Shown piece by piece: positions 1,060 through 51,522 of a stretch of 64,000 bases of DNA. Source of the stretch: an uncultured Bdellovibrionales bacterium (GTDB lineage: Bacteria; Patescibacteriota; Minisyncoccia; Moranbacterales; UBA1568); the NCBI GenBank assembly GCA_964384235.1, contig CAYLJX010000002.1, positions 114,660 through 178,659 of the forward strand, in the 5' to 3' direction. The translations under genes and the position numbers were made by a program. Positions within the stretch are counted from its first letter, which is position 1; each line of letters opens with the position of its first letter. The notes beneath the pieces were generated by a model, which did not search any database, was not told the origin of the DNA, and was given only the letters and a program-made list of their open reading frames with translations.

Positions 1060-2263
1060 CATCCTCAAGGAAACGTTCTGGTCGCTTGCCGGCAACAAGG
1101 TCCGGTCCGGTTTGACGATCCTCGGTATCGTCATCGGTATCGCCTCGGTCATCACGATGATCGCGATCGGCCAAGGGGCGCAGGCTTCCATCGAGCAGAA
1201 CATCCAGTCCATCGGCTCCAATCTCATCATCGTCTTTCCCGGGGCGCAGCGCGGCGGCGGACTTTCCGGCGGCCGGGGGAGCGCCCAGACGCTCACGCTC
1301 GATGACGCGGAGGCCATCGCCAAGGAAACGCCGTCGGTCAAGGCGGTCGCGCCGGAAGTGACGCGCCGCTACCAGGTCACCGCCCGAGGCAACAACACCA
1401 ACACCCAGGTGATCGGGACAACGACCGACTATCCGACCGTGCGAAACGTCAAAATGAACTTCGGGACATTCGTCACCATGCAACAGATCAAGGGTTCGGC
1501 CAAGGTGGCGGTCTTGGGTCCGACGGCGCGAGACGACCTCTTCGGTGTGAATGCCAATCCGATCGGGCAGACGGTCCGCATCAACAACACCGACTTCCAG
1601 GTCATCGGCGTGGCCCAGAGCAAGGGCGGATCGGGTTTCAATAATCCCGATGACGCCATCTATGTGCCGCTCTCCTCGGCGCAGAACTTCCTTTCCGGAG
1701 ACCAGTATGTCACGTCCATCGGCGTGGCTGCGACGGATCAGAACTCCATGACGGCCGTACAGGACGGGATCACGGCGCTTCTGCGTGAACGGCACCGTAT
1801 CGCTCCCTCGGGACAGGCGGATTTCAACCTCTTGAACCAGACCGACATCGTCGCGACCGCTTCGAGCGTGACGGGTACGTTTACGATCCTCCTCTCTTCC
1901 ATCGCGAGCATCTCGCTTCTGGTCGGCGGCATCGGCATCATGAACATGATGCTCACGACCGTCACCGAACGCACCCGCGAAATCGGCCTCCGCAAGGCGG
2001 TCGGTATCCGCAAGCGTTACATCGAGCTGCAGTTTCTCGCTGAGGCGATCGTGCTCACGCTCCTCGGGGGTGTCATCGGCGTGGTGCTCGGGTGGGGAGC
2101 GTCGCTTCTGGTGGCGCAGTTCGCCGGACTCTCGACGGAAATCTCACTTTCGTCGGTACTCCTGGCCTTCGGGGTTTCGGCGGCGGTCGGTATCGTCTTC
2201 GGCTTCTATCCCGCCCGTCGGGCGAGCGAACTCAAGCCGATCGAGGCTCTGCGGTATGAGTGA
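1046..2263 (+). CDS. ABC transporter permease, FtsX/MacB family
   Basis: N-terminal TM helix, large periplasmic domain, and a C-terminal cluster of 3 TM helices typical of FtsX-like permeases. Overlaps the ATPase gene by 14 nt. Confidence 0.8.
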   Translation: MIYADILKETFWSLAGNKVRSGLTILGIVIGIASVITMIAIGQGAQASIEQNIQSIGSNLIIVFPGAQRGGGLSGGRGSAQTLTLDDAEAIAKETPSVKAVAPEVTRRYQVTARGNNTNTQVIGTTTDYPTVRNVKMNFGTFVTMQQIKGSAKVAVLGPTARDDLFGVNANPIGQTVRINNTDFQVIGVAQSKGGSGFNNPDDAIYVPLSSAQNFLSGDQYVTSIGVAATDQNSMTAVQDGITALLRERHRIAPSGQADFNLLNQTDIVATASSVTGTFTILLSSIASISLLVGGIGIMNMMLTTVTERTREIGLRKAVGIRKRYIELQFLAEAIVLTLLGGVIGVVLGWGASLLVAQFAGLSTEISLSSVLLAFGVSAAVGIVFGFYPARRASELKPIEALRYE

Positions 2264-4579: not shown

Positions 4580-5638
4580 ATGAAAATAGCCGTGTTGGTA
4601 TCGGGCGGGGTGGACAGTTCGGTAGCTCTCCGACTCTTGAAGGACGAGGGTCACGAGCTCACCGCCTTTTACCTCAAAATCTGGCTGGAGGACGAATTGT
4701 CCTTCCTGGGCGAGTGCCCATGGGAGGAGGATTTGTCATACGTGCGGGCCGTGTGCGAGGAGGCCGGTGTGCCGCTCGAGGTCGTGCCGTTCCAAAAGGA
4801 GTACTGGGAGGAAGTAGTGGCCTACGTGATCGACGAGGTGCGATCCGGCCGGACGCCCAACCCGGACATGCTCTGTAATGCCCGGATCAAGTTCGGCGCT
4901 TTCTACGAAGCGTTCGGCAGGGACTACGATAAAGTGGCGACGGGGCATTATGCCTGGACAGAGGAGTACGACGGCAAAACGCTTTTGCGCGTGTCTCCCG
5001 ATCCCATCAAAGACCAGACGTATTTTCTTTCGCAGCTTTCACAGGAACAGGTGAGCAAGGCACTCTTTCCGATCGGGAAATATGAGAAGGGTGAGGTGCG
5101 GAAACTCGCCGAAAAGTATCATCTCCCCAACGCCAAACGAAAAGACAGTCAGGGTATCTGCTTCCTCGGTAAGATTCCCTTCGACAGGTTCCTCGAACAC
5201 CATCTGGGCAAGCGGCCGGGAAAGATCATTGAATACGAGACCAAGAAAGTCTTGGGCGAGCACGACGGTTTCTACTATTACACGGTCGGACAGCGGCGCG
5301 GCATCAGATTGTCAGGCGGGCCGTGGTACGTGGTAGGGAAAAATGCCGAGATGAACGAAGTCTACATCTCACACGGCGAGCACTACGCATTGTCTGCGCG
5401 TGATACGTTCGTGGTCGGAGGAGTGAATTGGATTTCAGGAACCGTACCGGAGAACAAAGATCTCATGGTCAAGGTTCGCCACGGTGCCAAGATGTATCCG
5501 GCGACGGTTGAGTTTCTGGAAAACGATAGGCTGAATATAACTTTAAAAGAAAAAGACCCGGGCGTTGCCGCGGGTCAGTTCGCCGTATTATACGACGGGG
5601 AGTATTGTCTTGGAGGGGGAACCATATTGGAAGGTTAA
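4580..5638 (+). CDS. mnmA: tRNA-specific 2-thiouridylase MnmA
   Basis: N-terminal PP-loop AVLVSGGVDSSVA, catalytic Cys region, typical 352-aa length. Confidence 0.85.
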   Translation: MKIAVLVSGGVDSSVALRLLKDEGHELTAFYLKIWLEDELSFLGECPWEEDLSYVRAVCEEAGVPLEVVPFQKEYWEEVVAYVIDEVRSGRTPNPDMLCNARIKFGAFYEAFGRDYDKVATGHYAWTEEYDGKTLLRVSPDPIKDQTYFLSQLSQEQVSKALFPIGKYEKGEVRKLAEKYHLPNAKRKDSQGICFLGKIPFDRFLEHHLGKRPGKIIEYETKKVLGEHDGFYYYTVGQRRGIRLSGGPWYVVGKNAEMNEVYISHGEHYALSARDTFVVGGVNWISGTVPENKDLMVKVRHGAKMYPATVEFLENDRLNITLKEKDPGVAAGQFAVLYDGEYCLGGGTILEG

Positions 5639-5702
5639 AACGGTTAACGGGTTACGAGTTAAAAAGTTAAAAACCTGTTAACCTGTGAACTTGTTAACTG
5701 GA
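5639..5702. repeat. GTTAAC-rich intergenic repeat (copy 1 of 4)
   Basis: aacggttaacgggttacgagttaaaaagttaaaaacctgttaacctgtgaacttgttaactgg. Shares the gttaac, aaaagttaaaa and gtgaac vocabulary with copies at about 21231, 45240 and 47756. Confidence 0.6.
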
Positions 5703-5720
5703 AAACAACAAGCGATTCAT

Positions 5721-6710
5721 ATGTCAATCAGAGAAGAAAAAATCGAATTTTTTGAGAAGCACCTGCTCGACTTTTTCAAGAAGGCCGGGCGGGAACATTT
5801 GCCGTGGAGGAAGAAACAGATTACGGCGTACGAGGTGTGGGTGTCGGAGATCATGCTCCAGCAGACTCAAGTTGCGCGCGTCATCTCGTACTACGAGAAT
5901 TTTTTGAAGCGTTTCCCAACGGTCGAGGAGCTTGCGCAGGCGTCGTGGGAAGAATTTCTCCCGTACTACCAGGGTCTCGGCTACTATGCCCGCGGACGAA
6001 ACATGCTCAAGGCGGCACAGATGGTCGTAAAAGAGTACGATGGAAAATTTCCACGTGACAAGAAACTTCTCGAAAGCATTCCTGGTATCGGTCCCTACAC
6101 GGCCGCGGCCATCATGAGCTTCGCCTACGGTGACGACCATCTGGCGTGGGATACCAATCTTAAGCGGGTAACGGGCAGGTTCTTTTTTGGGAGCAAGGGT
6201 GCGCCGATAGATGAGGCAGAATGGGAAAACCGTCTGACGATAAAGAGGAAAACTCTCAACGCCGCGCTCATGGATTTCGGGAGCGCGATATGCGTCGCCC
6301 GGCCCAAGTGCGGAGCGTGTTCTCTTAAGGAGAAATGTATTTACTACAAGGAGAAAGGGAATCAAGAATCTAGAATCATGAATCAAGAATTAGGAAAAGA
6401 AAAAAATCCAAAAAAAAGAACAGATTGGAAAGAGGCGCGAGCAGTAGTTATCCTGCACGAGAATCATAAGAAGTACTACTCGTCAGTGAAAAAAGAATAC
6501 AAACCGTTCGTCCTTCCGAGCGGGTACAATACGCGCGCGGGTATCAAGAAATATTTCAAGGAGAAACATGGACTCGATCTCTCTGTTCGTCCGCCGCACA
6601 AAAAATCCGTCATCAAGGGAAAACCGACGCTCTTCGTGAACGCTCAGATTCTCCTTGGCGAGCCGAAATTCACTGTGTTCTCGAAAGAGATTTTGATGAG
6701 TGACGAGTAG
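5721..6710 (+). CDS. A/G-specific adenine DNA glycosylase (MutY-family HhH-GPD glycosylase) with a Lys-rich C-terminal extension
   Basis: LQQTQV, HhH-GPD region PGIGPYTAAAIMSFAYG, and 4Fe-4S cysteine cluster CxxxxxxCxxCxxxxxC. ATG at 5721 preferred over the GTG at 5685, which lies inside the repeat. Confidence 0.7.
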   Translation: MSIREEKIEFFEKHLLDFFKKAGREHLPWRKKQITAYEVWVSEIMLQQTQVARVISYYENFLKRFPTVEELAQASWEEFLPYYQGLGYYARGRNMLKAAQMVVKEYDGKFPRDKKLLESIPGIGPYTAAAIMSFAYGDDHLAWDTNLKRVTGRFFFGSKGAPIDEAEWENRLTIKRKTLNAALMDFGSAICVARPKCGACSLKEKCIYYKEKGNQESRIMNQELGKEKNPKKRTDWKEARAVVILHENHKKYYSSVKKEYKPFVLPSGYNTRAGIKKYFKEKHGLDLSVRPPHKKSVIKGKPTLFVNAQILLGEPKFTVFSKEILMSDE

Positions 6711-6784
6711 TGCTATACTTCAAGTAAAGGATTTTTCTGTCAGTAATTTTGACTTTTGCCTTTTGAATTTTGACTTTCTTTCCT

Positions 6785-7840
6785 ATGCAACTCAAATCTC
6801 TCAATGTCTATTTCTTTTTCCTTCTGTTCCTTGGCGTGGGGGCAGTGGTGTTTTTCATCTTTCAGCCGTTCCTGACCGCCATGGTGGCGGCCGCCATTCT
6901 CGCAGCGCTCTTCGAGCCGACCTATGATACTCTCATGCGGTGGACGCGTGACCGTCGGGGAACGAGTGCGCTCCTCACGTGCCTCCTCGTCATCGCGATC
7001 ATCGTGACGCCGGTTTTCTTCGTCCTCAGTCTCGCGATCGGCGAGGCGAGCACGATCTTCCATTCTTTCGGAGAGGAAACGTCTCTCAAAAAATTCATCG
7101 GACAGAGTGTGGATTTTTTTCGCGGCATCCCGTATCTCAATCTGATCGGTGCGGACACGCTCAATCAGGACCGTATCCTGGACGATATCAAGAACCTGTC
7201 CCAGAACGCGCTCGGACTCCTGCAGGCGGCGTACCAGGGCATCACGCATTTCGTCTTCTGGGTGTTCGTGATGTTTTTCACGCTTTTCTATTTCCTCATC
7301 GACGGGCGGCGGGCAGTAGCGTTCCTCATGCGGCTTTCACCGCTTCGCGACGAGCATGACAAGCTCCTCATCAAGAAGTTCGTCTCCATCAGCCGGGCGA
7401 CGCTCAAGGGAACGCTCGTGGTCGGAGTCGTCCAGGGTTTCCTCGGGGGAGTGGCGTTCTGGATAGCAGGGGTCCCCTCGCCAGCCATCTGGGGGCTTAT
7501 CATGGTGCTCTTCTCGATCATTCCTCTCGTGGGGAGCGCGGCGGTGTGGCTGCCCGCCGGACTCATCATGCTGTTCTTGGGGAACATCTGGCAAGGTATC
7601 TTCATCCTGTCGGTCGGGGCGGGCGTGATCTCGCTCATCGACAATATCCTCCGTCCCAAGCTGGTGGGTCGCGACACGCAGATGCATCCGCTCCTGGTCT
7701 TCTTCGCGACGCTCGGCGGTATCGCGTATTTCGGTCTCCCGGGTTTCGTCATCGGTCCGATCATCGTGTCGCTCTTCATGGCGCTCGGCGAGATCTATGG
7801 TATCGAGTTCCGGAAGCAGCTGAAGGAATATAATGAATAG
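6785..7840 (+). CDS. AI-2E family (UPF0118/PerM-like) transporter
   Basis: 8-TM topology, conserved C-terminal block NILRPKLVG...HPLLVFFATLGGIAYFGLPGFVIGP. ATG at 6785; the track ORF begins at a TTG at 6770. Confidence 0.65.
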   Translation: MQLKSLNVYFFFLLFLGVGAVVFFIFQPFLTAMVAAAILAALFEPTYDTLMRWTRDRRGTSALLTCLLVIAIIVTPVFFVLSLAIGEASTIFHSFGEETSLKKFIGQSVDFFRGIPYLNLIGADTLNQDRILDDIKNLSQNALGLLQAAYQGITHFVFWVFVMFFTLFYFLIDGRRAVAFLMRLSPLRDEHDKLLIKKFVSISRATLKGTLVVGVVQGFLGGVAFWIAGVPSPAIWGLIMVLFSIIPLVGSAAVWLPAGLIMLFLGNIWQGIFILSVGAGVISLIDNILRPKLVGRDTQMHPLLVFFATLGGIAYFGLPGFVIGPIIVSLFMALGEIYGIEFRKQLKEYNE

Positions 7841-9270: not shown

Positions 9271-9477
9271 CGGGTATTCGGTCCCAGGGCCCGCCCGCAA
9301 CGATTCGCGTAGCGATTCGGGCAGGCAAGCCCTGGACTCAATCCCTCCGCGGCCAGCCTCGCCGGCTAGGCGGGCAAGCCGCGGGGTATTGAACCCGATT
9401 TTACCAGCGCTCCGCTCGGAAACGAAAGCAAGCCTTCGTTTCACTCGCTACACTTGGTAATAATCGCATCGCTTTCA

Positions 9478-12443: not shown

Positions 12444-12468
12444 GAAGATATGTCTAGCCTAATAAATT

Positions 12469-12616
12469 CTCTCCAGGCAAAGTCTTCCTTTTCGGAGTCG
12501 CTCGCCCGTCCGGCGTACGGGCTCCCTCCTGAAGCTCCTTCGCTCTCCTCCTTGCCAGTCGGAACCATGCCCGCTTTCGGATCTTCAAGACTCCGAAAAG
12601 GAATCTTTGCCTTTCG
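12469..12616 (+). repeat. structured inverted-repeat element, copy 1 (arms about 23 bp, conserved core hairpin)
   Basis: Arms ggcaaagtcttccttttcggagtc ... gactccgaaaaggaatctttgcc. Core has gaggagcgaaggagcttcaggag and hairpin gcccgt-ccggcgt-acgggc. A second copy lies in inverse orientation at about 51291-51440. Confidence 0.6.
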
Positions 12617-21220: not shown

Positions 21221-21230
21221 AGTTTTACTT

Positions 21231-21345
21231 CAGTTAATCGGTTGAAGGGTTAACAAGTTCACAGGTTAGCAGATTTTTCGATAAAAAGTCAATTCTTGAA
21301 TCCTTACTTGTAACTTTTTAACCTGTTAACCGGGGAACTGGAATT
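21231..21345. repeat. GTTAAC-rich intergenic repeat (copy 2), between rpmI and rplT
   Basis: gttgaagggttaacaagttcacaggttagc...aactttttaacctgttaaccgggg. Confidence 0.55.
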
Positions 21346-21539
21346 TATGCGTACGGGAGGGCCTTTTTGATGTTCTTTTCGACGGCGGCGTAGACATCCT
21401 GGTCACGGCGCTTGGCACGATTCTGGTTGCCGGTCGCTCGGGAGTTGTAGTGGTTCTGTCCGGTGGCGCGGGTCTTGATCCTGCCGCTGCCGGTCACCTT
21501 CACTTTTTTAGCGATGGACTTCTTCGTCTTCTGCTTCAT
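21345..21539 (-). CDS. rpmI: 50S ribosomal protein L35
   Basis: 64 aa, MKQKTKKSIAKKVKVTGSG...ALPYA. Confidence 0.85.
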   Translation of the reverse strand: MKQKTKKSIAKKVKVTGSGRIKTRATGQNHYNSRATGNQNRAKRRDQDVYAAVEKNIKKALPYA

Positions 21540-22114: not shown

Positions 22115-22133
22115 TGTTCCGCGTATTAAAAAG

Positions 22134-22528
22134 TGGAGTTGATGGGAATCGCACCCATGTCCAGGCATGTTTTTCCAAAATAGTCTACAAGCTTAGTGTC
22201 GCTTGGCATGAAAGAGGAGGGTAGAAGCGGACGAAATCCCTCATCAGTCTCTTCTTCTGCAACAGGTCCTGAAAATGAAGAGAAGGAAGATTCTCAGGCT
22301 GCCTCGATGATATGGCACCGGATGACTCGTATCGAGAATAGGAGGTCCGATGGCTCACGCGATTAGGCGCGGGCAAAAGCGAAAGACGGAGCAAACGCCG
22401 AAGCGATCGCGGTCTTGGCCTTGGTGATGAAGTTTGCAGTTATCATCGTGGGAACGAGTTTTACGATCATGTTCCCGAGATCGGCTTGCGTATTTTGAAA
22501 GTACATCCTGTCGAGTCTAGACAACCCC
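22134..22528 (-). ncRNA. ssrA: tmRNA (SsrA)
   Basis: On the minus strand. 5' end GGGGUUGUCUAGACUCGACAGG (tRNA-like 5' half). 3' end ACAUGGGUGCGAUUCCCAUCAACUCCA: T-arm plus acceptor strand pairing with the 5' GGGGUUG, giving a G3:U70 pair. Internal candidate tag frame GCA AAC ... GCC TAA. Directly downstream of smpB on the same strand. Confidence 0.55.
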
Positions 22529-22707
22529 TTGGTCATTGCAATAGGCGTGTTGCCATTGTGATGACTGAGCGATAGTGTAGAATGCGGTTTTTCTTTTTGG
22601 ATTGCTCAAATTTTAAATTTCTAATTTCAAATTTCTAAACAAAACCGAATGACTGAATGTCTGAAACATTAAAAATTCGGACTTGATTCAAAATTCTGAA
22701 TTCAAAA

Positions 22708-23154
22708 TTAGAAATTCTTTAAAGCTCGCTCGATCTTTCGTTTCGCTTCACGCTTCCCGATGTCCGAGCGCTTGTCGTAGGCTTTTTTCCCCTTGCCCAC
22801 GGCAAACTCCAACTTGACGAGTTGTTTCTTAGTATACAGTCGAATGGGCACTAAAGTCAAGCCTTCGACGCGTGATTTTCCTATCAGAGAGCGGATTTCC
22901 CGACGACGGAGGAGGAGTTTTCTGGAACGAGTGTCTTCGTGCCTCGTGTCCCGGTGGGCATGTTGATAACGAGGGATGAGGGCATTGGTGAGGTAGAGTT
23001 CGCTTCCTTTGACCGTGACAAAGGCTCCTTTGAGGCTTGCATGTCCAGTTTTGACGGATTTTACCTCGGCTCCGGTCAATACCAAACCCGCCTCATATCG
23101 ATCAGAGAGGGCATAATCGAAACTCGCTCGTTTGTTGGTAGCAATGACTTTCAT
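22708..23154 (-). CDS. smpB: SsrA-binding protein SmpB
   Basis: MKVIATNKRASFDYALSDRYEAGLVLTGAEVKSVK... ATG at 23154 within ORF 22708..23268. Confidence 0.85.
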   Translation of the reverse strand: MKVIATNKRASFDYALSDRYEAGLVLTGAEVKSVKTGHASLKGAFVTVKGSELYLTNALIPRYQHAHRDTRHEDTRSRKLLLRRREIRSLIGKSRVEGLTLVPIRLYTKKQLVKLEFAVGKGKKAYDKRSDIGKREAKRKIERALKNF

Positions 23155-23274
23155 AGTATCTAGTATGTAGTATTGGGTATTTAGGGGGAAGGAGCAAGGG
23201 TGATTGACTTGATATGGGAAAAATAGTACTATACCAAGTCGAAGATCACTTCGACTCTTCTTTATCAACTCACC

Positions 23275-23791: not shown

Positions 23792-25414
23792 ATGAAGATT
23801 CTGATCGAGAAACAATTGAGAGAAGCGATACGGGCATTGCAGGAAACAGGGATACTTCCTGCTTTTGATGTTCCTGGAATCCGTGTGGAGCGGCCCAAGG
23901 ACGATCAGTTCGGGGAGTATACGACCAATGTCGCATTGATGATCTCGAAGCAGGCAGGAAAGAGCCCGAGGGAGATAGCGGAAAAAATCAGAGAACAGCT
24001 AACAGAGAACAGTGAGCAGAATACTCTTTTTGAGAAAGTGGAAGTCGCAGGGCCGGGACATCTGAATTTTTATCTGTCGCAGGAGGCGCTCACGAACGTC
24101 GTGCGGGAGGTTTTGGAAAAAGGAGGATCATTCGGTGATTCGAATATCGGCGTAGGGGAGAAAGTGAACAACGAATTTATTTCGGCCAATCCGACGGGAC
24201 CCTTGCATCTTGGCAATGGCCGTGGCGGATTTTATGCCGATTCACTCTCGCGCGTCTTGCGAAAGAGCGGCTATGACGTGACGAACGAATACTATATCAA
24301 CGACGCCGGCGAGCAGGTGATGAAACTGGGGCATAGTGTCTTAAAGGACAGCGAGGCAGTCTATGGCGGCGACTATATCGACGCGCTCAATGAACAGCTA
24401 ACAGCGAACAGTGAACAGAAAAACCTGAATGCGAAAGAAATTGGGGAGTGGGCGGCGGAGATCGTGATGGAGGAGATGGTCAAGAAGACACTCTCTGAAC
24501 AGATGGCTATCTCGTTTGATGTTTTCACGTCAGAGAAGAAGGATGTCGTGGAGAAAGGTTTCGTAGACAAGGCTATCGAGATTTTCAAAGAAAAAGGGCT
24601 AGCGTTCGAAGAAGAGGGGGCACTTTGGCTTCGTACCACCGAGTTCGGTGACGACAAGGACCGCGTGCTCGTGAAGCAAGACGGCTCTCGGACGTACTTC
24701 GCTTCCGACTGTGGATACATCTTGCAGAAAATAGAGCGTGACTTTACGAGACTCATCGAGACATGGGGCGCTGACCATCACGGCTATGTGGCGCGTTTCA
24801 AGGCAGCAGCACAGGCGCTCGGGTTTCAGGGGAAAATCGATTTCCTTCTTGTTCAGCTCGTGAAGCTCGTCAAGGACGGCGTCGAGGTGAGGATGAGCAA
24901 GCGTGCCGGCAACGTGGTGACGATCGACGAGCTCATCGAGACGGTCGGGCACGACGTGGCGCGGTTCTTTTTCCTTATGTACGCGCCGGAGACACATATG
25001 AACTTCGATCTCGGGCTCGCCGAGGAGCGCTCCGCCAAGAACCCGGTCTTCTACGTGCAGTATGCGCACGCGAGGCTCGCGAGTATTCTGCGCAAAGCCG
25101 AGGAGGAAGGATTCGTATCGGACGGCGCCGACCTCTCCCTTCTTATGCATCCCAAGGAGCGTGAACTCATGCGCGAGCTCCTCTTTTTTCCGGAACTCGT
25201 CGAGACAGTCTCGGAAGACTTTTCCGTGCACAAGCTGCCGCAGTATGCTATCCGTCTTGCCGACAAGCTCCATTCTTTCTATGATGAGTGTCGGGTGCTC
25301 GATGCCGAGAATCAGTCTCTCTCGGCGGCACGCCTCGAACTCATCCGTTCTGTCAAGATCGTCCTCGGTGAAACCCTCTCCCTCATGGGTATCGACGCCC
25401 CGGAGAGGATGTAA
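23792..25414 (+). CDS. argS: arginyl-tRNA synthetase
   Basis: ANPTGPLHLGNGRG (HIGH-class motif), class I ArgRS domain order, 540 aa. Confidence 0.9.
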   Translation: MKILIEKQLREAIRALQETGILPAFDVPGIRVERPKDDQFGEYTTNVALMISKQAGKSPREIAEKIREQLTENSEQNTLFEKVEVAGPGHLNFYLSQEALTNVVREVLEKGGSFGDSNIGVGEKVNNEFISANPTGPLHLGNGRGGFYADSLSRVLRKSGYDVTNEYYINDAGEQVMKLGHSVLKDSEAVYGGDYIDALNEQLTANSEQKNLNAKEIGEWAAEIVMEEMVKKTLSEQMAISFDVFTSEKKDVVEKGFVDKAIEIFKEKGLAFEEEGALWLRTTEFGDDKDRVLVKQDGSRTYFASDCGYILQKIERDFTRLIETWGADHHGYVARFKAAAQALGFQGKIDFLLVQLVKLVKDGVEVRMSKRAGNVVTIDELIETVGHDVARFFFLMYAPETHMNFDLGLAEERSAKNPVFYVQYAHARLASILRKAEEEGFVSDGADLSLLMHPKERELMRELLFFPELVETVSEDFSVHKLPQYAIRLADKLHSFYDECRVLDAENQSLSAARLELIRSVKIVLGETLSLMGIDAPERM

Positions 25415-26659: not shown

Positions 26660-26940
26660 GCGGGTGATACAGTGGCGGTACAATATTTGAAAGGCGATGA
26701 AGGGATCATCCTCCTGGAGCTCCAAGAAGAAAGCCTTTGCGGCGAGTAGAACTTGGCGGGCACGCCCGTAACAGCCGGAATGAAGGGTATTTTGTATTAT
26801 GTATTTTGTATTATGTATTCCTTATACATAATACTTGATACCAGATACTTCATACCGAACTGAGGTGGTACCACGCTCCGACTCCTTATCGGTCGTTCAG
26901 CGTCCTTAGCACAGAGCGTGTTAAGGATTTTTTGTTTTTA
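26660..26940 (+). promoter_or_regulatory. candidate T-box riboswitch leader (Ile-specific) with intrinsic terminator, upstream of ileS
   Basis: T-box core match AGGUGGUACCACGC at about 26863-26876 (consensus AGGGUGGNACCGCG). Candidate specifier AUC-A at about 26704-26711. Downstream terminator ccttagcac-agagc-gtgttaagg plus T-run at about 26904-26939. The motif 3' half cacgctc can pair with gagcgtg inside the terminator. Confidence 0.4.
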
Positions 26941-26945
26941 TAATT

Positions 26946-29900
26946 ATGTCATTCAAAAAAGTTCCGTCGCAGGTGAGTTTTCCGAAATTGGAGGAGGAGG
27001 TCCTCAAGTATTGGGAGGAGAACAAGATCTTCGAGAAGTCGGTGGAGAAAAATCCCGAGGACAAGACGTTCATTTTTTACGAAGGGCCGCCGACGGCTAA
27101 TGGCAAGCCGGGACTTCATCATGTCCTCGCACGCTCGTTCAAGGACATCATCCCGCGCTACAAGACGATGAAAGGTTATCGTGTCGAGCGCAAGGCCGGC
27201 TGGGACACGCACGGGTTGCCGGTGGAACTCCAGGTGGAAAAAGCACTCGGCCTCAGGAACAAACAGGACATCGAGAATATCGTGCCGGGCGATGCGCGGG
27301 CGAGTGTCATCGAGTTCAACAAGAAGTGCAAGGAATCCGTGTGGGAGTACCGCGACCTCTGGGAGAAGCTCACGCGGCGCATGGGTTATTGGGTCGATAT
27401 GGAACACCCGTACGTGACGTACGAGAACGAATACATCGAGTCGGTGTGGTGGCAGCTCGCGCAGGTCGCGGCACTGAAAAACGAGAAAGGGGAATCTTAT
27501 CTCTACAAGGGACACAAAGTCGTTCCGTACTGCTACCGCTGCGGAACAGCGCTCTCCTCGCACGAGGTGGCGCAGGGGTATCAGACTGTGAAGGATAATT
27601 CAGTGTATGTGAAATTCCAGTTAACAGCGAACAGCGAACAGAAAACGGAAAACAAGACATATCTTTTGGCATGGACCACTACGCCTTGGACTTTACCAGG
27701 AAACGCGGCTTTAGCTGTAAAAAAAGATGAAGTCAAATATATAACACTTGAAACTGAAGCTGATACGTCAAATTTAAAAAAAGGCGATCAAGTAGTCTTT
27801 GCTTTTACCCATGAGATATTAGGACGTGTTTTAGGTGATAATTTTAAGGAATTTCATAAGAGTAACCATGATTTATTGAATGCTGTTCCTGAGGCATACG
27901 AAACAGAAACCGGTGTGAGATATAAAGTTATAGGATTATGTGATGGGAATGAATTGTTAGGAAAACTATACGAACCTCTTTACGAAACCACAGGAAAAGA
28001 TGCGGAGAAATGTTACAGAGTGGTGGCGGGGGATTTCGTCACGACGACCGATGGTACGGGGATCGTGCACATCGCGCCGGCGTTCGGTGAGGATGATGCC
28101 AACGTCGGCAAGGAGAACGGTCTGCCGACGCTCCTGACTGTAGAGACGGACGGAACGCTCATGAAAGGTTTCGGTCTGCCGGGTGAGGGGATTCCGGTCA
28201 AGAAAAAGAACGACAAGAACCGCTATGCCGTGGACGATCTCATCATCGAGGACCTGAAACAGCGAGGACTGTTTTTCAATGAAGAAGTGTATGAGCATGA
28301 GTACCCGTTCTGCTGGCGTTGTGACACGCCGCTTATCTACTTCGCCAAGCCGTCGTGGTTCATCCGAATGGGTGAGCTTCGGGACGAACTCGTAAAGAAC
28401 AACGAGAGTATCACCTGGGTGCCGGAACATATCAAGGAAGGGCGCTTCGGCGAGTGGTTGCGCGGCGTGAAGGATTGGGCCATCTCACGTGAACGTTACT
28501 GGGGTACGCCGCTTCCCATTTGGGAATGTGACACGTGTGATACACGGAAAGTGATTTCTTCGACTGACGAACTGACGAAATTTTCCGGTAAGAAACTCGA
28601 AGATGTGCATAAGCCGTACATTGATGATGTGACGTGGTCATGCGAATGCGGTGGTACGATGAAACGGACGCCGGAAGTGCTCGACGTGTGGTTCGATTCC
28701 GGCGCGATGCCCTTGGCGCAGTTTACCTATCCGGAGCAGTCCGATGCGGTGGTCAAGGAAAAAATCGAATCCGGGAAATATTTCCCGGCGGACTATATCT
28801 GCGAGGCGATCGACCAGACGAGAGGGTGGTTCTATACGCTCCATGCCATCGCGACGCTTCTCAATAAGGCCGGGAAAGTGCCGGTAGGCAACGCCTACAA
28901 GAACGTCATCTGTCTCGGGCACGTGCTCGACGCGCAGGGCAAAAAGATGTCCAAGTCCAAGGGGAATGTCATCGATCCGTTCCAGATGTTTGAGGAATAC
29001 GGTGCCGATCCCTTGCGCTGGATGCTCTTCTCGATCAATCAGCCGGGACTACCGAAGCGTTTCGACGTGAAGGGGATGCGCGACGTGCAGAACCGCGTGT
29101 TCCGTATGCTCTGGAACTCGTACTCGTTCTTCATGACGTATGCGGCAATCGACGGTTGGCAGCCAAAAGCTACAAGCCACAAGCCACAAGCTACAAGCTT
29201 GCTCGACCGATGGATCGTTTCGGAATTACAGATGCTTATTAGGGGGGTCGATGGATCGCTTGCTGCTTATGATGTCTATACACCGACCAAGAAGATCGAG
29301 GTGTTCATTGATAATCTCTCCAATTGGTACATCCGTCGGAGCCGCGACCGCTTCTGGAAATCAGATGATGATACTGACAAGAACCAGGCATATCAGACGC
29401 TCTATGATGTGCTCGTGACGCTCTCGAAATTGATGGCCCCGTTCACGCCGTTCGTCGCCGAAGAAATCTATAGGGGATTAACAGGAAAAGAGTCCGTACA
29501 TCTCGCAGACTGGCCGGAGGCGGATGAAAAATTGATTGATGAAAACCTGAATGAAGAGATGCAACACGCCAGATTTATTGTGACGATGGGATTGAAAGTC
29601 CGCGCCGATGAAAAAATTAAAGTTCGTCAGCCACTTCAGAAAATAACAGCACGCCCGCTTGAGAAGGAACTGCAAGGAATTGTGTTGGATGAACTGAATG
29701 TGAAGGAATATGTCGAGCGTAAGGAAATGAACGAACTAGTTGAACTTGATCTGACTCCCAATGATGATCTTAGACTCGAGGGTGAGATGAATGAGATCAA
29801 CCGGGCAATCCAGGATGGCCGCAAGAAGGCGGAGTTTAATGTGGAGGACCGGATCGTACTCGGCTATCAGGGAAAGGAGGAAGTTTTTGAGAAGTTCGGT

Positions 29901-34491: not shown

Positions 34492-35610
34492 ATGTGGGAA
34501 GAACAAGGAAGAACAGGAACCAAGCGTTACGGAATGTTGAAAACGAGGGGAGGAGTGATACCCACTCCTTTTTTCATGCCGGATGCGACGAGGGCGTCGG
34601 TGCGGGGACTTTCCAAGGACGATCTGAACACGGTCGGCGTATGGCCGATGGTGGTGAATACGTACCATCTCATGCTTCAGCCGGGCGTTGAATTGATCAA
34701 ACAAGCGGGAGGCACGCATCGTTTCATGAACTCTGACGGACCGCTCCTCTCTGATTCCGGCGGGTACCAGGTCTACTCGCTCATTCACAAGAATCCGGAA
34801 CTGGGAAAGATCACCGAAGAGGGGGCGGAGTTTCGCTCGCCTCTTGATGGTCGCAAGCATCTCCTGACGCCGGAGCGTTCCATCGGGATCCAGTTCGATC
34901 TCGGCGTCGACATGATGGTCTGTCTCGATGACCCGCGCCCCAATGATGCGCCACGGGAAGAGATCGTGGCCGCGGTGGACCGTACGATCCGCTGGGCGAA
35001 GCGGTGCAAGGAAGAGTACGACAGACAAGTGGTCGCGCGCGGAATGAATGATGAGGCAAGACCGCTCCTCTTCGGTGTGGTACAGGGCGGGATGCTCGTG
35101 GAAGAACGGAAGCGCTGTGCCGAGGGGCTGGTCGCGATCGGTTTCGACGGGTACGGTTTCGGTGGTCGGCATGTGGACGGTGACGGCCGATTTCTCGAGG
35201 AGATCGTCAGGGAGACCGCGTCGTTCATCCCGGAAGACAAACCGCGTTTCGCGCTCGGGGTCGGGACGCCTCAGGATATCGTGCGCTGCCATGCGCTCGG
35301 ATGGGACATGTTTGACTGCGTCATCCCCACCCGTGAAGGAAGACACGGCCGTTTGTTCGTGTTTAACCCACAAGCTACCAGCTACCAGCTACAAGCTGAT
35401 TTCTACGAAACGATCAATATCACGAACGAACAGTACAAGGATGACTTCGCGCCGGTGGATGCAGCATGCGATTGTCTCCTGTGTACGAAATACACCAAAG
35501 CGTATCTCAAACATCTTTTCAAAGTAGCTGACCCGCTCGCCGGCCGTCTCGCTTCGATGCACAACTTGCGCTTCTATATGAAGCTGATGGAAAAACTCCG
35601 GGAGGAGTAA
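34492..35610 (+). CDS. tgt: queuine tRNA-ribosyltransferase
   Basis: LGVGTPQDIVRCHALGWDMFDCVIPTREGRHG and C-terminal Zn site CDCLLC...H. Confidence 0.85.
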   Translation: MWEEQGRTGTKRYGMLKTRGGVIPTPFFMPDATRASVRGLSKDDLNTVGVWPMVVNTYHLMLQPGVELIKQAGGTHRFMNSDGPLLSDSGGYQVYSLIHKNPELGKITEEGAEFRSPLDGRKHLLTPERSIGIQFDLGVDMMVCLDDPRPNDAPREEIVAAVDRTIRWAKRCKEEYDRQVVARGMNDEARPLLFGVVQGGMLVEERKRCAEGLVAIGFDGYGFGGRHVDGDGRFLEEIVRETASFIPEDKPRFALGVGTPQDIVRCHALGWDMFDCVIPTREGRHGRLFVFNPQATSYQLQADFYETINITNEQYKDDFAPVDAACDCLLCTKYTKAYLKHLFKVADPLAGRLASMHNLRFYMKLMEKLREE

Positions 35611-37686: not shown

Positions 37687-37783
37687 AAAGTAGAACCACC
37701 ACTCGTCCGAAAAAATCGGACAACGTAGATTAGATTTTCAGATATACCTGATACATACTACGTAATACATAATACTGACGGGA

Positions 37784-39055: not shown

Positions 39056-39089
39056 ATTGTCATTCCCGCGGAGACGGGAATCCAGGAAT

Positions 39090-40115
39090 ATGACGATTGA
39101 TGAAAGAGTAGAAACCGGAACCAAGCTTCTCATCCGTGCGGCGCTCATCGTGGCAGGGATTTACGTTCTTTACCTCATCCGGGACGTGGTGTTGTTGACG
39201 CTCTTCGCGGTGCTCGCGGCAGCGGCACTCGCGCCGCTTATCGTCAAACTCTCCCGGTATGGTCTCTCCCGGACGGCTTCCGTGATCATCGTCTATATGG
39301 TGATCTTTCTCGGTGGGACGGCGCTTCTTATCGCATTCCTGCCGGTACTCTTCTCCGAAATCAAGGAATTTCTCTCGAATTGGCCCAAGTATGCCGAGAG
39401 CATAGGAGGGATGCTTGCTGGGTGGGAATCATATTTTCACAGTATCGGTATCGGTTTCGAGAAGGAAGTCTTTTTTCAGGACATCGAGCAGAGCGTGACG
39501 GAAACGGTGGGGAATCTCTTCTCGACGACACTCAGTCTTTTCCAGGGGTTCATACACTTCATCGGGTTCTTCTTCCTCTCGCTCTATCTCTCCCTCGAGG
39601 AGCGCGGTATCGAGAAATTCTTCCTGCTCCTCACGCCGGAGCATTACCATGAGCACGCGCTTTCGATCGTCTCACGGATGCGTGACAAGGCGAGCCAGTG
39701 GCTCTTCGGGCAGACGCTTCTCATCCTCATCGCGTTCGGCATCTACGCTATCGGGCTCTCCGCCATCGGTATTCCCTACGCGCTCGCCATCGCGCTCTTC
39801 GGCGCTCTCATGGAGATCCTGCCGTATATCGGACCGGTGCTCGCGGCTATCCCGGCCATCCTCTCGGGACTTTTCGTCTCGCCGGGTCTCGCCATCGCGG
39901 CACTGGTGTTCTATATCATCGCGCATCAGCTCGAGGCTCACATCATCGCGCCGCAGGTCATGAAACGATCTGCCTCGCTCAATCCGGTGGCCTTCATCAT
40001 CGCGGTCCTGGTAGGCGCACAGCTCGGCGGTCCCTTGGGCATCGTCCTCGCGGTCCCGATCACGATGATGATGACGGTGTTCGTGGACGATCTTCTTATC
40101 AAGCGAAACGCGTAA
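39090..40115 (+). CDS. AI-2E family transporter (second copy)
   Basis: Polytopic. C-terminal block IAHQLEAHIIAPQVMKRSASLNPVAFIIAVLVGAQLGGPLGIVLAVP. ATG at 39090 within the TTG-initiated track ORF. Confidence 0.65.
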   Translation: MTIDERVETGTKLLIRAALIVAGIYVLYLIRDVVLLTLFAVLAAAALAPLIVKLSRYGLSRTASVIIVYMVIFLGGTALLIAFLPVLFSEIKEFLSNWPKYAESIGGMLAGWESYFHSIGIGFEKEVFFQDIEQSVTETVGNLFSTTLSLFQGFIHFIGFFFLSLYLSLEERGIEKFFLLLTPEHYHEHALSIVSRMRDKASQWLFGQTLLILIAFGIYAIGLSAIGIPYALAIALFGALMEILPYIGPVLAAIPAILSGLFVSPGLAIAALVFYIIAHQLEAHIIAPQVMKRSASLNPVAFIIAVLVGAQLGGPLGIVLAVPITMMMTVFVDDLLIKRNA

Positions 40116-41098: not shown

Positions 41099-42556
41099 AT
41101 GGAAAATACCGAAAATAAGCCAGCCCGCATCGCTACGCGAAGCGTTGCTGGCGGGCCATTTTTTATTACGACACCCATCTATTACGTGAACGGGCGGCCC
41201 CATATCGGCCATGCCTATACGACCGTGGCGGCGGACTGTCTCGCTCGGTTCAAACGTCTTCAGGGGGAAGAAATCTTCTTCTCGACGGGAACGGACGAGC
41301 ACGGGATGAAGATACAGAAAAAGGCCGAGGAAGAAGGGAAAGAGACAAGTGTCTTCGTCGACGGGATCGCGGAAACGTTCCGAGACCTCTGGGAGAAACT
41401 CGGTATCAGCTATACGCGGTTCATCCGCACGACCGAGCCGGCACACAAGGCAGCGGTACAAAAGGTGCTCCAGGATTTCTATGACCGTGGCATCATCTAC
41501 AAGGGTTTTTACGAGGGACTCTACTGCGCCGGCTGCGAACAGTTCAAGATCGCGGACGATCTGGTCGATGGCAAGTGTCCCGACCATGGCACCGTTCCGG
41601 AGCTCATGAAAGAGGAGAGCTACGTCATGAAGATGACCGTCATGCAGGACGAGCTCATCCGAAGAATCGAGCAGGACGAGCTGTATGTCGCACCGGAGAA
41701 ATACAAGACGGAAATATTGTCTTTCCTCAAAGGCGAACGGCTCGAGGATATCTCCATCTCACGCAAGAACGTCCGGTGGGGGATACCGCTTCCTTTCGAT
41801 GGGACGCATACGACGTACGTGTGGGTGGACGCTTTCCTTAATTACCTCACGGTGCTCGGTTGGGACGGGAACAGGGAGAGCGTTCCGCGAGAGTGGCCGG
41901 CCGACGTGCAGTTCATCGGCAAGGATATCCTCCGCGTGCATGCCACCATCTGGCCGGTGATTCTCATGCACCTCGGGTTCCCCACGCAGAAAGTCCTCTT
42001 CACGCACGGATTCATCCTCTCCGGTGGCAAGAAGATGAGCAAGACCCTCGGGAACGTCATCTCACCCGACGAGATGATCGAGCGCTTCGGTGCCGACGGG
42101 ACGAGGTACCTCCTCATGAGTGCCGGACGTTTCGGTGAGGATATCGATTTGACGCTTGAGCGCGCGACGGAGAAATACAACGCCGACCTCGCGAACGGTC
42201 TCGGCAACCTGGTTTCGCGCGTGATGAAGCTCGCGGAGAGTTCATCGAACGTAAGCTATCCGCTCGTCACGGGATGGCCTGAGGAGTTCGTCCTGTATAT
42301 GGGCGCGTGCTCCCTGTATGAGGCGCTCGAATCCGTGATGGACCGGGTGCGCGCCATGAACAAGAAGATCGACGACGCCAAACCATGGGTCTTAGTGAAA
42401 GAAGACAAACCGAAATTCGAGGAAGTCATGAACGGGTTCCTCGCCGAACTCAACGAACTCTCGTTCCTGCTGCAGCCGTTCCTCCCGGAAACCGCCCAAA
42501 AAATCCAAACCGCCCTCACGGAAGGCAAAACCGAACCACTTTTTAAGAGAATCTAG
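41099..42556 (+). CDS. metG: methionyl-tRNA synthetase
   Basis: PIYYVNGRPHIGHAYT (HIGH), KMSKTLGN, Zn-knuckle CAGCEQF...CPDHG. Confidence 0.9.
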   Translation: MENTENKPARIATRSVAGGPFFITTPIYYVNGRPHIGHAYTTVAADCLARFKRLQGEEIFFSTGTDEHGMKIQKKAEEEGKETSVFVDGIAETFRDLWEKLGISYTRFIRTTEPAHKAAVQKVLQDFYDRGIIYKGFYEGLYCAGCEQFKIADDLVDGKCPDHGTVPELMKEESYVMKMTVMQDELIRRIEQDELYVAPEKYKTEILSFLKGERLEDISISRKNVRWGIPLPFDGTHTTYVWVDAFLNYLTVLGWDGNRESVPREWPADVQFIGKDILRVHATIWPVILMHLGFPTQKVLFTHGFILSGGKKMSKTLGNVISPDEMIERFGADGTRYLLMSAGRFGEDIDLTLERATEKYNADLANGLGNLVSRVMKLAESSSNVSYPLVTGWPEEFVLYMGACSLYEALESVMDRVRAMNKKIDDAKPWVLVKEDKPKFEEVMNGFLAELNELSFLLQPFLPETAQKIQTALTEGKTEPLFKRI

Positions 42557-42560
42557 AGAC

Positions 42561-42656
42561 ATGTAGAAAGTATCATGTAGTATGTATCATGTATGGGATA
42601 GAATGCGTGATACCGAATACAAGATACTTGATACATAATACGATATACATAATACG
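42561..42656. repeat. GTAT/ATAC-rich intergenic repeat (one of six copies)
   Basis: catgtagaaagtatcatgtagtatgtatcatgtatgggatagaatgcgtgataccgaatacaagatacttgatacataatacgatatacataatacg. Shares TACATAATAC / GTATTATGTA and GATACCGAATAC modules with copies at about 23156, 26789, 37741, 48755 and 57118. Confidence 0.55.
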
Positions 42657-44860: not shown

Positions 44861-44930
44861 AAAAGAAGTCAAAAGTCAAAGGTGAAAAGTCAAAAGTCCA
44901 AGTCGAAATTCAAAAGTTTGAATTGAAAAA
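44861..44930. repeat. AAAGTC(A/C) direct-repeat tract between atpB and atpE
   Basis: aaaaagaagtcaaaagtcaaaggtgaaaagtcaaaagtccaagtcgaaattcaaaagtttgaattg. Related tracts at about 6746-6778 (inverted), 16921-16950 and 19571-19600. Confidence 0.5.
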
Positions 44931-44999
44931 TATGGACAAGAGTAGAAAAACGCTCTACAATGGGAAATCAGTAATCAAATAAGTAATCAGTTTTAATAA

Positions 45000-45233
<234 letters not shown>

Positions 45234-45239
45234 GATTAT

Positions 45240-45312
45240 TATCCGGTTAAAAAGTTAAAAGGTTAACAGGTTTAGGAATCCAAACCCGTTAACTCGTTAA
45301 CCTGCAACTGTC
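45240..45312. repeat. GTTAAC-rich intergenic repeat (copy 3), between atpE and atpF
   Basis: atccggttaaaaagttaaaaggttaacaggtttaggaatccaaacccgttaactcgttaacctgcaactg. Confidence 0.55.
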
Positions 45313-45325
45313 TAACTGAATCATC

Positions 45326-46209: not shown

Positions 46210-46255
46210 TTCTCTCTTTTCTCTAAAATTCCTAACCTCCTAACTCCTTCCCCAT

Positions 46256-47755
<1,500 letters not shown>

Positions 47756-47822
47756 CAGTTAACAAGTTAAAAGGTTAACAGCTTAAGAAAGCTTGTTAAC
47801 TTGTGAACTCGTTAACCGAATA
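47756..47822. repeat. GTTAAC-rich intergenic repeat (copy 4), between atpA and atpG
   Basis: cagttaacaagttaaaaggttaacagcttaagaaagcttgttaacttgtgaactcgttaaccg. Confidence 0.55.
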
Positions 47823-47833
47823 ACTGAAGGATT

Positions 47834-48754: not shown

Positions 48755-48903
48755 TATTCAGTATTTCGTATATCGTATGGCGTATTCCGGTACGTGATGC
48801 GAGATACCAGATACCGAATCTGGAAGGAATTTTAAAAAAGCACGCAGAAATGATTCAAGACAGTCCGCGTTGCGAACTGTCTTGTCGAGAGGGGTGGCCG
48901 TGG

Positions 48904-49125
48904 TCAATCCTGCTTCATGGAGGGCGATGGCAATAAGACCAGGGCGATGGCTGTGGCCAGCATCAGCGCGAAGAACGCCATGTTGAGCGGGACCGGATAC
49001 ATCGGCTGATGACTCACCCAGAGCATGGGCGCGTAGGTCCACAGGAAGCTGACACCGAAAAGAACCAGGAGAATGCAGGCGATCCAGAGGACTACCCGGA
49101 AGAGTTTGAACATGATGATCTCCAA
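48904..49125 (-). CDS. small two-TM membrane protein (73 aa) encoded antisense between atpG and atpD
   Basis: GGAG RBS 6 nt before the ATG. Two hydrophobic helices. Own hairpin terminator caagacag...ctgtcttg at about 48856-48884 followed by a U-run on the minus strand. Confidence 0.4.
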   Translation of the reverse strand: MEIIMFKLFRVVLWIACILLVLFGVSFLWTYAPMLWVSHQPMYPVPLNMAFFALMLATAIALVLLPSPSMKQD

Positions 49126-51440: not shown

Positions 51441-51522
51441 AGAAGATTGCTTATAGAGTATTTCAAGAGTAGAATGAAAGCGTGAACAGGAATGTTCGCG
51501 CTTTTCCATTAAACAAAACTGT

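Follow-up and report, generated by a model that had tools for sequence, protein, structure and literature searches.

Short palindromic sequences rich in the hexamer GTTAAC lie between genes inside several operons of an uncultured bacterium, which poses the question of what these elements are, how they came to lie there and whether they act on the messages that would contain them. They were found in a stretch of 64,000 nucleotides (the window; positions 114,660 to 178,659 of contig CAYLJX010000002.1, assembly GCA_964384235.1), which is recorded as an uncultured Bdellovibrionales bacterium and placed by GTDB within the Patescibacteriota (Moranbacterales, UBA1568). Four elements, here elements 1 to 4, occupy the mnmA/mutY-like, rpmI/rplT, atpE/atpF and atpA/atpG spacers and constitute a real, non-random, dispersed repeat family. 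Judged by their sequences, they appear to be a new family within the known class of intergenic palindromes built from short repeats, with a function that is putative at most. Neither the family nor comparable hairpins in Patescibacteria turned up in a literature search, whose coverage was incomplete and whose weight as evidence of novelty is correspondingly weak. We favour, at roughly even chances, a reading in which the elements are dispersed hairpins similar to repetitive extragenic palindromes (REP) and cyanobacterial short tandemly repeated repetitive sequences (STRR), made and resized by slippage, co-transcribed with their operons and folding into a stem-loop after the upstream cistron.

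The four sites stand out from the rest of the window. GTTAAC occurs 16 times where 7.5 are expected, a count reached in none of 100 shuffles, and 11 of the 16 hexamers lie inside the elements. The 20-mer TAACNNGTKAACNNGTTAAC, allowing up to three mismatches, has 38 overlapping matches, all of them within the elements, against a chance expectation of 0.23. A profile hidden Markov model (HMM) of the family finds these four loci only (E = 1e-15 to 9e-21). The original prediction, made from the letters of the window alone, had placed four related elements of 60-110 bp at these sites and described them as built from modules in direct and inverted orientation. Their existence and construction are borne out, the latter by a direct family (D3) and inverted pairs (I3, I5, I13) in a repeat search of the window and by period-8 arrays that Tandem Repeats Finder (TRF) reports in elements 1, 3 and 4. 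The predicted extent needs correction, as the elements are slightly larger, with outer units that border on the upstream stop codon or overlap it. Pfam agrees with the neighbours named in the prediction: tRNA_Me_trans (mnmA) and an HhH-GPD glycosylase (called mutY there; MutY-like, with the glycosylase domain alone seen), L35 and L20 on the minus strand downstream of IF3, ATP-synt_C and ATP-synt_B, and the ATP synthase alpha and gamma subunits.

Aligned along the direction of transcription, all four elements share one plan, in which an arm with purine fillers is followed by a loop and an arm with pyrimidine fillers. The unit is an octamer, consisting of the self-complementary hexamer GTTAAC, or the variants GTGAAC/GTTCAC and GTTAAA, and a filler of 2 nt. 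That the arms are thus simple-sequence repeats of 8 nt had escaped the original prediction. The first arm starts 0-14 nt past the upstream stop codon and comprises three to four octamers (GTTAAC or GTTAAA with purine filler). After a loop of 4-45 nt, the second arm comprises three to five units (GTTAAC or GTGAAC with pyrimidine filler), and in all elements but one these decay into ...TAACTGAAG/T. From the end of the predicted stem to the downstream ATG there are 7-20 nt. Each element is predicted to form a long imperfect hairpin (sense fold -20.8 to -24.3 kcal/mol, z = -2.0 to -4.3), the base of which pairs stop-proximal with start-proximal sequence. The arms are tandem arrays of 24-35 nt, and the outer ends of the palindromes are conserved (CAGTTAAC...GTTAACTG). 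Copies are about 65-85% alike and differ by whole units, with a mean column identity of 63-68% and whole-unit insertions and deletions.

Element 1 (5636..5710, plus strand, HMM E = 1e-15) has its 5' arm at about 5641-5672 (GGTTAAC GG GTTAC GA GTTAAAAA GTTAAAAA) and its 3' arm at about 5674-5700 (CCT GTTAAC CT GTGAAC TT GTTAAC TG). The mnmA stop codon, TAA at 5636-5638, lies inside the first GGTTAAAA unit, the likely downstream ATG is at 5721, and the sense fold reaches -20.8 kcal/mol (z = -2.9). Element 2 (21228..21342, minus strand, E = 1.7e-15) reads GGTTAAC AG GTTAAAAA GTTACAAG in its 5' arm and CTG CTAAC CT GTGAAC TT GTTAAC CC TTCAAC CGATTAACTGAAG in its 3' arm, on either side of a 45-nt loop or insert with GAATC/ATTCAAG-type units. 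It is bordered by the rpmI stop codon (21345-21347) and the rplT ATG (21220-21218), and it forms with element 1 the inverted pair I13, 93% complementary over 30 nt. Element 3 (45239..45320, plus strand, E = 9e-21, fold z = -3.3) lies between the atpE stop codon (45231-45233) and the atpF ATG (45326), with a 5' arm CC GGTTAAAAA GTTAAAAG GTTAAC AGG, a centre GGTTTAGGAATCCAAACC and a 3' arm C GTTAAC TC GTTAAC CT GCAAC TGTC TAACTGAA. Element 4 (47746..47829, plus strand, E = 2e-18) encloses the atpA stop codon, TAG at 47753-47755, and precedes the atpG ATG (47834); its 5' arm CA GTTAAC AA GTTAAAAG GTTAAC AGCTT, loop AAGA and 3' arm AAGCTT GTTAAC TT GTGAAC TC GTTAAC CGAA TAACTGAAGG give a sense fold of -24.3 kcal/mol (z = -4.3). 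A further two octamers with a TAAC core (CCTAACCT CCTAACTC) are present at 46231-46246 in the 46-nt atpH|atpA spacer, 10 nt before the atpA ATG. They are HMM-negative and may be a degenerate single arm.

As the period of 8 equals 2 modulo 3, TAA appears in every frame of both strands within three units. Three units thus close all frames, and an insertion near a gene end terminates the protein within a few codons. Filler polarity relative to transcription was considered as a property of the family and rejected, since a palindrome reads alike on both strands; the pattern shows only that there is one dominant palindrome type.

The original prediction left open that the elements might be peculiar to this window, and copies in other genomes show that they are not. 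We refer to loci from other genomes by L-numbers and give taxon labels as in their records. Scanning one genome per species for TAACNNGTGAACNNGTTAAC returned at least 118 loci, to be read against about 280 chance matches expected in 596 Gb; among the matches listed, 64 of 118 have an additional GTKAAC unit in register, against a chance expectation of about 4. Loci among these listed matches concentrate in Moraniibacteriota and other Patescibacteria and occur also in Cloacimonadota, Bacteroidota, Acidobacteriota and metagenome-assembled genomes labelled uncultured Gammaproteobacteria. The closest AtpG homologues of the window are themselves labelled Candidatus Moranbacteria/Moraniibacteriota. 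With the family HMM, full-length copies were found in about 14 other genomes, mostly Patescibacteria. In L080, three successive spacers contain one copy each, and in L065 three copies lie within 8 kb. L129, whose AtpG is 50% identical to that of the window, has a copy whose central GGTTAGGATTCCTAAC loop is similar at the atpH|atpA junction, which is neither of the atp junctions that hold a copy in the window. In Cloacimonadota, GTKAAC octamers form direct arrays over hundreds of bases after stop codons (L004 1739-2164), and assemblies break inside such arrays in L014, L030 and L096, at contig ends or N runs.

Placement relative to genes is strict at the stop-codon end. Co-directional spacers contain 19 of 29 full-length copies, and likewise all four elements of the window; convergent spacers account for 8 copies and divergent ones for 2. 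The distance to the stop codon has a median of 2 nt and is at most 20 nt in 17 of 19 cases; the distance to the start codon has a median of 15 nt and ranges from 4 to 243 nt. An alignment of 22 elements from about 14 genomes runs in the order stop codon, purine-filler arm, loop, pyrimidine-filler arm, start codon. The comparison with REP sequences made in the original prediction therefore holds for the position next to gene 3' ends. It does not extend to membership of REP or of bacterial interspersed mosaic elements (BIME), as the elements have no GTAG head and the window has no REP-associated tyrosine transposase (RAYT).

Orthologous junctions differ in what they contain. At atpA|atpG, L209, which is the nearest relative with an AtpG identity of 85%, has a 91-nt hairpin of GAATCnn units. 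L214, next in closeness (80%), has a TTTGAAA array at this junction, and more remote relatives carry either hairpins of different heptamers or nothing. L210, L211 and L212, which are syntenic and share 77-78% AtpG identity, have tight junctions free of elements (atpE|atpF 10 nt, atpA|atpG 2 nt, metS|tatD 2 nt). L215 has an atpA|atpG junction of 3 nt and an unrelated atpE|atpF spacer of 157 nt. L128 and L144, about 90% identical, carry different arrays right after atpG and an identical TTTTGAA array further on. This presence and absence, together with the swapping of repeats, shows that the elements turn over fast and can be dispensed with at a given junction. They are hence not ordinary conserved intergenic sequence, another possibility raised by the prediction. 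Array changes were seen only between species: ten other, independent assemblies of the same strain, 99.5-100% identical, have an identical element 3 and show no insertion or deletion in it or the neighbouring arrays, and so no copy-number change by slippage between close strains. SRR16481186, SRR16481187, ERZ15185866 and SRR32548958 are among the samples that contain this strain. A contrasting degree of conservation was found in L072 and L091, both labelled uncultured Gammaproteobacteria, which are 91.7% identical over 2063 nt (172 substitutions). Here, the 125 nt at L072 2497-2621, spanning a GTTAAC element, its loop and tail between a stop codon and the next start codon, contain no substitution where about 10 would be expected. 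Close to the atp junctions, we also observed a small open reading frame (ORF) with its own terminator-like hairpin between atpG and atpD (48904-49125, minus strand). This ORF is present in L209 as well (1614-1829, minus strand) and absent from L210 and L212, where the spacer measures 41 nt.

Several of these features would be expected of a mobile, non-autonomous element, akin to REP sequences or miniature inverted-repeat transposable elements (MITE), whose inverted arms are recognised by a transposase. The palindromes have inverted terminal arrays and conserved outer ends, several copies lie in one genome at junctions that differ between genomes, and records labelled as several phyla contain them. 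A palindrome with the purine arm first dominates: purine-filler arrays lie near a stop codon in 18 cases and near a start codon in 5, pyrimidine-filler arrays in 1 and 8, respectively. Nevertheless, we consider mobility of this kind very unlikely. Pfam searches of the approximately 60 window genes revealed no transposase of any kind, RAYT, integrase or Nop-domain protein, and comparison of the filled junctions with the empty ones of L210 and L212 showed no visible target-site duplication. The divergence between copies, by whole units, is also untypical, and many other flavours share the same architecture within the same genome, for which separate transposases are implausible.

These other flavours were overlooked in the original prediction: the GTTAAC family is one of several families of 7-8-nt repeat hairpins that pervade the genome. 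TRF reports 37 rows of period 7, 8, 14 or 16 in the window, whereas 20 dinucleotide shuffles yielded 3.3 on average and never more than 8. Among the tandem repeats in 658 kb of related loci anchored on AtpG, period 7 is dominant and period 8 ranks third. Most other arrays of the window consist of an array and its inverted copy within the same spacer. GTATnnn/ATACnnn heptamers occur at 26786-26856, 42560-42656, 48754-48820, 57112-57225, 37744-37779 and 23149-23181. Forward ATAC arrays reach or come near the starts of tatD (42657), uppP (57226), an M16 peptidase gene (37784) and smpB (23154, minus strand), and one faces the divergent gene ending at 57075 (minus strand), so that in a divergent spacer each arm faces its own gene. 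TTTTGAC/GTCAAAA arrays lie at 6747-6777 and 44861-44917. Between smpB and the tmRNA gene (22131-22528, minus strand), ATTCAAA/TTTGAAT-type heptamers make up a palindrome of 180 nt that constitutes the spacer (22529-22710; sense fold -41.5 kcal/mol).

One sibling hairpin lies within a recognisable RNA. The leader upstream of ileS (26688-26910) matches the T-box family RF00230 over its full length at 37 bits (E = 7e-7), which is short of the gathering score of 93. At the position of Stem III it carries the GTATnnn/ATACnnn hairpin 26786-26856, with 33 nt per arm, which implies that this hairpin belongs to a transcribed RNA. A helix is expected at this site, a promoter or terminator would be harmful there, and the case demonstrates that such hairpins are compatible with functional RNAs. 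Elements 1 to 4 themselves had no Rfam match at the gathering threshold or at E <= 0.05, the only matches in the window being tmRNA, tRNA and the T-box leader.

Similar repeats reach into coding sequence, where direct arrays lie in frame in variable linkers of ArgRS, IleRS, LeuRS, TGT and the MutY-like gene. In LeuRS, a perfect (ATCGAAT)x5 array (55133-55168) encodes RISNIEYRISN and replaces a 9-residue linker of the relatives. ArgRS (23989-24020 and 24392-24418) and IleRS (27610-27645) share 24-28 nearly identical nucleotides of the form CAG(C/T)TAACAG(C/A)GAACAG(T/C)GA(A/G)CAG. These arrays have a 7-nt period, are related to GTTAAC and encode QLT(A/E)NSEQ each time. ACAAGCY arrays are found in IleRS (29161-29198) and TGT (35373-35397), and a GAATCAA array in the MutY-like linker (6359-6390).

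How translation starts in this genome bears on a further explanation. Shine-Dalgarno motifs at the proper distance are nearly absent from the roughly 60 window genes, and A/T-rich or repeat sequence precedes many starts. The pyrimidine-filler 3' arm with its TAACTGA end could serve as a Shine-Dalgarno-independent landing site for ribosomes, a role that has been suggested of TAACTGA repeats, and be masked by the 5' arm until a terminating ribosome melts the base of the stem, which joins stop-proximal and start-proximal sequence. In E. coli, rpmI-rplT and atpH-atpA are classic cases of coupling mediated by structure. TAACTGA occurs four times in the window (3.25 expected), always singly, and three of these are the last units of elements 2 to 4 (21230-21236 on the minus strand, 45313..45319 and 47821-47827 on the plus strand), in sense orientation and 6-10 nt before the ATG, 6 nt in the case of atpF. 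Forward arrays abut starts not only in elements 1 to 4, with their TAAC core, but also, with an ATAC core, before 37784, 42657, 57226, 57075 (-) and 23154 (-). Direct repeats of TAACTGA are known from Beggiatoaceae, Cyanobacteria and Bacteroidetes, just upstream of start codons that lack a ribosome-binding site (RBS) (MacGregor 2015, PMC4679880). Despite these parallels, a role in initiation or coupling appears unlikely. The anchor across genomes is the stop codon and not the start, which varies in distance; the eight copies in convergent spacers have no downstream start codon, and in L080 a canonical promoter lies between element and next gene. Moreover, TAACTGA is present in single copies only and forms the outer unit at either end of the palindrome, and relatives manage with junctions of 2-10 nt.

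The prediction had also stated that the placement does not resemble that of promoters. In agreement with this, elements 1 to 4 have no sense-strand match to the sigma-70 consensus (TTGACA-like and TATAAT-like, 16-18 nt apart), and their -10-like hexamers lack the -7 T. Neither do they have a sense-strand match to an intrinsic terminator, that is, a G+C-rich stem with a U-run. Element 3 alone was flagged as terminator-like, on the antisense (minus) strand. Canonical signals do occur in the genome: a promoter TCGACA-17-TAGAAT precedes mnmA, a terminator of stem and T-run follows rplT, and a promoter-like TGGACA-17-TACAAT lies at 44933-44961 between atpB and atpE. The last is kept in syntenic relatives (L210 and L212 at about 7250-7285, L215 at about 7110-7145), which suggests an internal atp promoter. 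Upstream of it, AAGTCAA-type arrays (44861-44917) have been added in the window.

A signal at the level of DNA, be it an operator array, a promoter for near-leaderless mRNA or a one-way antisense terminator, is in our view the least probable of the explanations considered. In its favour, the 8-nt period sets TTAACN hexamers 24 nt apart, and the tail reads AATAAT in AT-rich genomes, giving TTAACY-16/17-AATAAT matches; those in L080 (TTAACY-16-AATAAT) are weak, and one of the two is too near the ATG. On the antisense strand, a stem is followed by CTTTTAAC, the strand on which element 3 is terminator-like, and the A-rich arm comes first relative to transcription in all four window elements. Such signals are, however, at odds with the failed sense-strand promoter scan, with an inconsistent distance between hexamer and ATG, with the good canonical promoters and terminators elsewhere in the genome and with the sibling hairpin inside the T-box leader, whose switch would be disrupted by a promoter or terminator. 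An 8-bp spacing is also out of helix phase for cooperative protein binding. Likenesses to parS, the CtsR box and the DnaA box were dropped because spacing and sequence do not fit. TIGR arrays are made of units of roughly 36 nt in tandem, which contain box C/D motifs and a pair of 8-9-nt spacers, and they lie beside a tas gene for a Nop-domain protein (PMC12045711). They are excluded by the 8-nt period, with two variable bases per unit and three to four units per arm.

We return to the reading of a co-transcribed, slippage-made hairpin. According to this model, the arms would be simple-sequence repeats that grow and shrink by replication slippage, and inverted duplication or copying would carry a module to new spacers, with a few flavours reaching many spacers. 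Copies would survive only where they are harmless, right after a stop codon and upstream of the start signals of the next gene. Transcribed with the operon, the element would form an imperfect stem-loop of 17-23 Watson-Crick base pairs without a U-tail behind the upstream stop codon. Like a REP sequence, it may block 3'-5' exonucleases where the upstream cistron ends, or cause pausing or processing there. Folding would also bring the stop codon and the next start codon, devoid of a Shine-Dalgarno motif, near each other, and this proximity may preserve the coupling of termination and reinitiation at junctions that are 2-10 nt long in relatives.

Several points weigh against this model. Co-transcription and folding are assumed in it, close relatives with conserved synteny do without the elements, which must therefore be dispensable at these junctions, and the placement behind stop codons is equally well explained by purifying selection on where junk sits. 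No copying machinery was identified among the window genes. In addition, structural tests did not single out the sense RNA. The alignment of 22 elements contains a 27-pair stem in which 82.8% of cells pair, compared with 20-41% when partners are slid. With shuffled partners, however, 84.1% pair, compensatory changes are not in excess, and column conservation accounts for all of the pairing. In 24 spacer hairpins, the two strands do not differ in how well they fold (mean -20.6 kcal/mol for sense and -21.3 kcal/mol for antisense, Wilcoxon p = 0.77), and G.U and A.C mismatches, at 22 versus 31, show no strand bias (sign test p = 0.39). The symmetry is thus possibly a feature of the DNA only. RNAalifold alone recovered only 6 pairs, which can be explained by arms that pair in several registers. 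In sum, the palindrome is real and conserved as a sequence family and bears no signature specific to the sense RNA.

The same tests would be satisfied if the palindromes were inert, neutral or mildly selfish products of slippage and template switching in a small, repair-poor genome, persisting only in places where they are harmless and with an incidental hairpin in the RNA. We regard this as a possible but doubtful alternative. Rapid turnover at orthologous junctions with absence in syntenic relatives, covariation that does not exceed conservation and the lack of a sense-strand bias in folding or G.U pairs would all follow from it, as would the invasion of variable protein linkers by like arrays in frame. 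It also agrees with the excess of heptamers throughout the genome: in the view of Mrazek 2007, to the extent that it is summarised in PMC4679880, heptamers are the commonest long simple sequence repeats (LSSR) and polymerase slippage is their proposed cause. Inert sequence would not, on the other hand, be expected to remain free of substitutions across element, loop and tail in L072 and L091, which differ by 8.3% elsewhere. Nor would it readily keep the same architecture, filler polarity and termini in genomes whose labels belong to different phyla. Several copies of the same flavour per genome require copying or selection of flavours, for which independent slippage is insufficient.

At the other extreme, the co-transcribed hairpins of the favoured model could belong to a conserved 'punctuation' module of Shine-Dalgarno-poor bacteria, in which a shared host factor, for example an enzyme of the RNase III type or an RNA binder resembling S1/Csp, would recognise the hairpins and cleave or gate polycistronic mRNAs where cistrons meet. 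The hosts would comprise Patescibacteria and some of the genomes labelled Gammaproteobacteria, Cloacimonadota, Bacteroidota and Acidobacteriota. TAACTGA repeats would be related in logic and perhaps in origin, and the other 7-8-nt flavours would be interchangeable versions. Taken as one joint claim, this is rather improbable.

By position, the family is most like REP/BIME; by construction, it is most like cyanobacterial heptamer repeats, LSSR and TAACTGA repeats, which the simple-sequence 8-nt arms and the existence of several 7-8-nt families mark as nearer kin. REP/BIME of Enterobacteria and Pseudomonas are likewise short imperfect palindromes in many copies, situated in co-directional or convergent spacers by gene 3' ends, often in operons, without a U-tail and transcribed with the operon, as we infer for the GTTAAC family. 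REP sequences form 3' stem-loops that stabilise upstream mRNA as barriers to 3' exonucleases, and those located near a stop codon influence ribosomes as they terminate. The GTTAAC family has no sequence relationship to them and no GTAG-type head, its arms are tandem 8-nt repeats of a self-complementary hexamer instead of a single 20-40-nt palindrome, no RAYT (Y1/HUH transposase) was found among the window genes, and the host belongs to the Patescibacteria.

Cyanobacterial short tandem heptamer repeats, for which the name STRR reportedly goes back to Mazel in 1990, the Nostoc repeats and LSSR consist of tandem 5-11-nt units, mostly heptamers, and are intergenic in co-transcribed operons. A few flavours occur per genome, each tens of times, and some form hairpins. 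In the co-transcribed hyp operon of Nostoc, for instance, dispersed heptamers include TTGTCAG three times, ATTGCGA twice and others, at 11-79 copies per genome (PMC2408588). The GTTAAC family shares the head-to-tail arrangement of short units beyond chance. It differs in its 8-nt unit with a 6-nt palindrome (the siblings GTATnnn, TTTTGAC and ATTCAAA are heptamers), in its short arrays of three to four units, inverted pairs and defined filler polarity, and in its recurrence across genomes with conserved ends.

With TAACTGA repeats, the family has in common short forward repeats with a TAAC core a few nucleotides upstream of starts without RBS, stops in the forward frames, a patchy distribution across phyla and the TAACTGA that ends three of the four window elements 6-10 nt before the ATG. 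In contrast to those repeats, this unit is single and terminal and not tandem, the period is 8 and not 7, an inverted partner arm creates a hairpin where TAACTGA arrays are predicted to be unstructured, and the anchor across genomes is the stop and not the start. MITEs resemble the elements in their inverted arms, but here target-site duplications are lacking and copies are divergent. Rickettsia palindromic elements (RPE) are 100-150 bp long, are not made of tandem short units and have in-frame copies inside protein genes. Palindromic repeats in a reduced genome with in-frame copies in conserved protein genes are thus common to both, the ArgRS and IleRS arrays encoding QLT(A/E)NSEQ with GTTAAC-related AACAGYG units; in the window, the coding copies are direct arrays and not full palindromes. 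Membership of REP, STRR, TAACTGA repeats and MITEs was rejected on account of the missing GTAG head and the lack of a RAYT among the window genes, the 8-nt unit, the single TAACTGA units, and the absent duplication and divergent copies, respectively.

Patescibacteria (the Candidate Phyla Radiation) have tiny genomes. The genome of the window tolerates, and perhaps uses, dense short-repeat hairpins at cistron boundaries, and these repeats have also remodelled a T-box leader and tRNA synthetase linkers. Recurrence across lineages, strict placement after stop codons and a repeat-prone, Shine-Dalgarno-poor genome make the family of interest. If the hairpins act on mRNA, they would provide a simple and fast-evolving means of tuning expression within operons; if they are inert, they would record slippage and template switching as an unusually active process of mutation. 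Of practical concern is that arrays of this kind interrupt assemblies and mislead gene callers into extended ORFs; they are also good markers of strains and species.

Further structures in the window deserve mention. An element of about 150 nt is present in two copies (12468-12616, plus strand, and 51291-51441, minus strand), which are 85% identical overall and 98% over a block of 52 nt. The first copy lies just upstream of the gene at 12637. Both share a closing helix of 25 bp, and their internal hairpins differ by four compensatory pairs; with no match in Rfam, the element is a candidate structured RNA or MITE. Hairpin repeats of another kind are G+C-rich. One at about 39063-39090 (GTCATTCCCGCGGAGACGGGAATCC, of the form ATTCCC-N8-GGGAAT) is positioned just before the start of an AI-2E gene, and 9288-9326 and 41119-41157 form an inverted pair of 39 nt that is 90% complementary across a distance of 32 kb.

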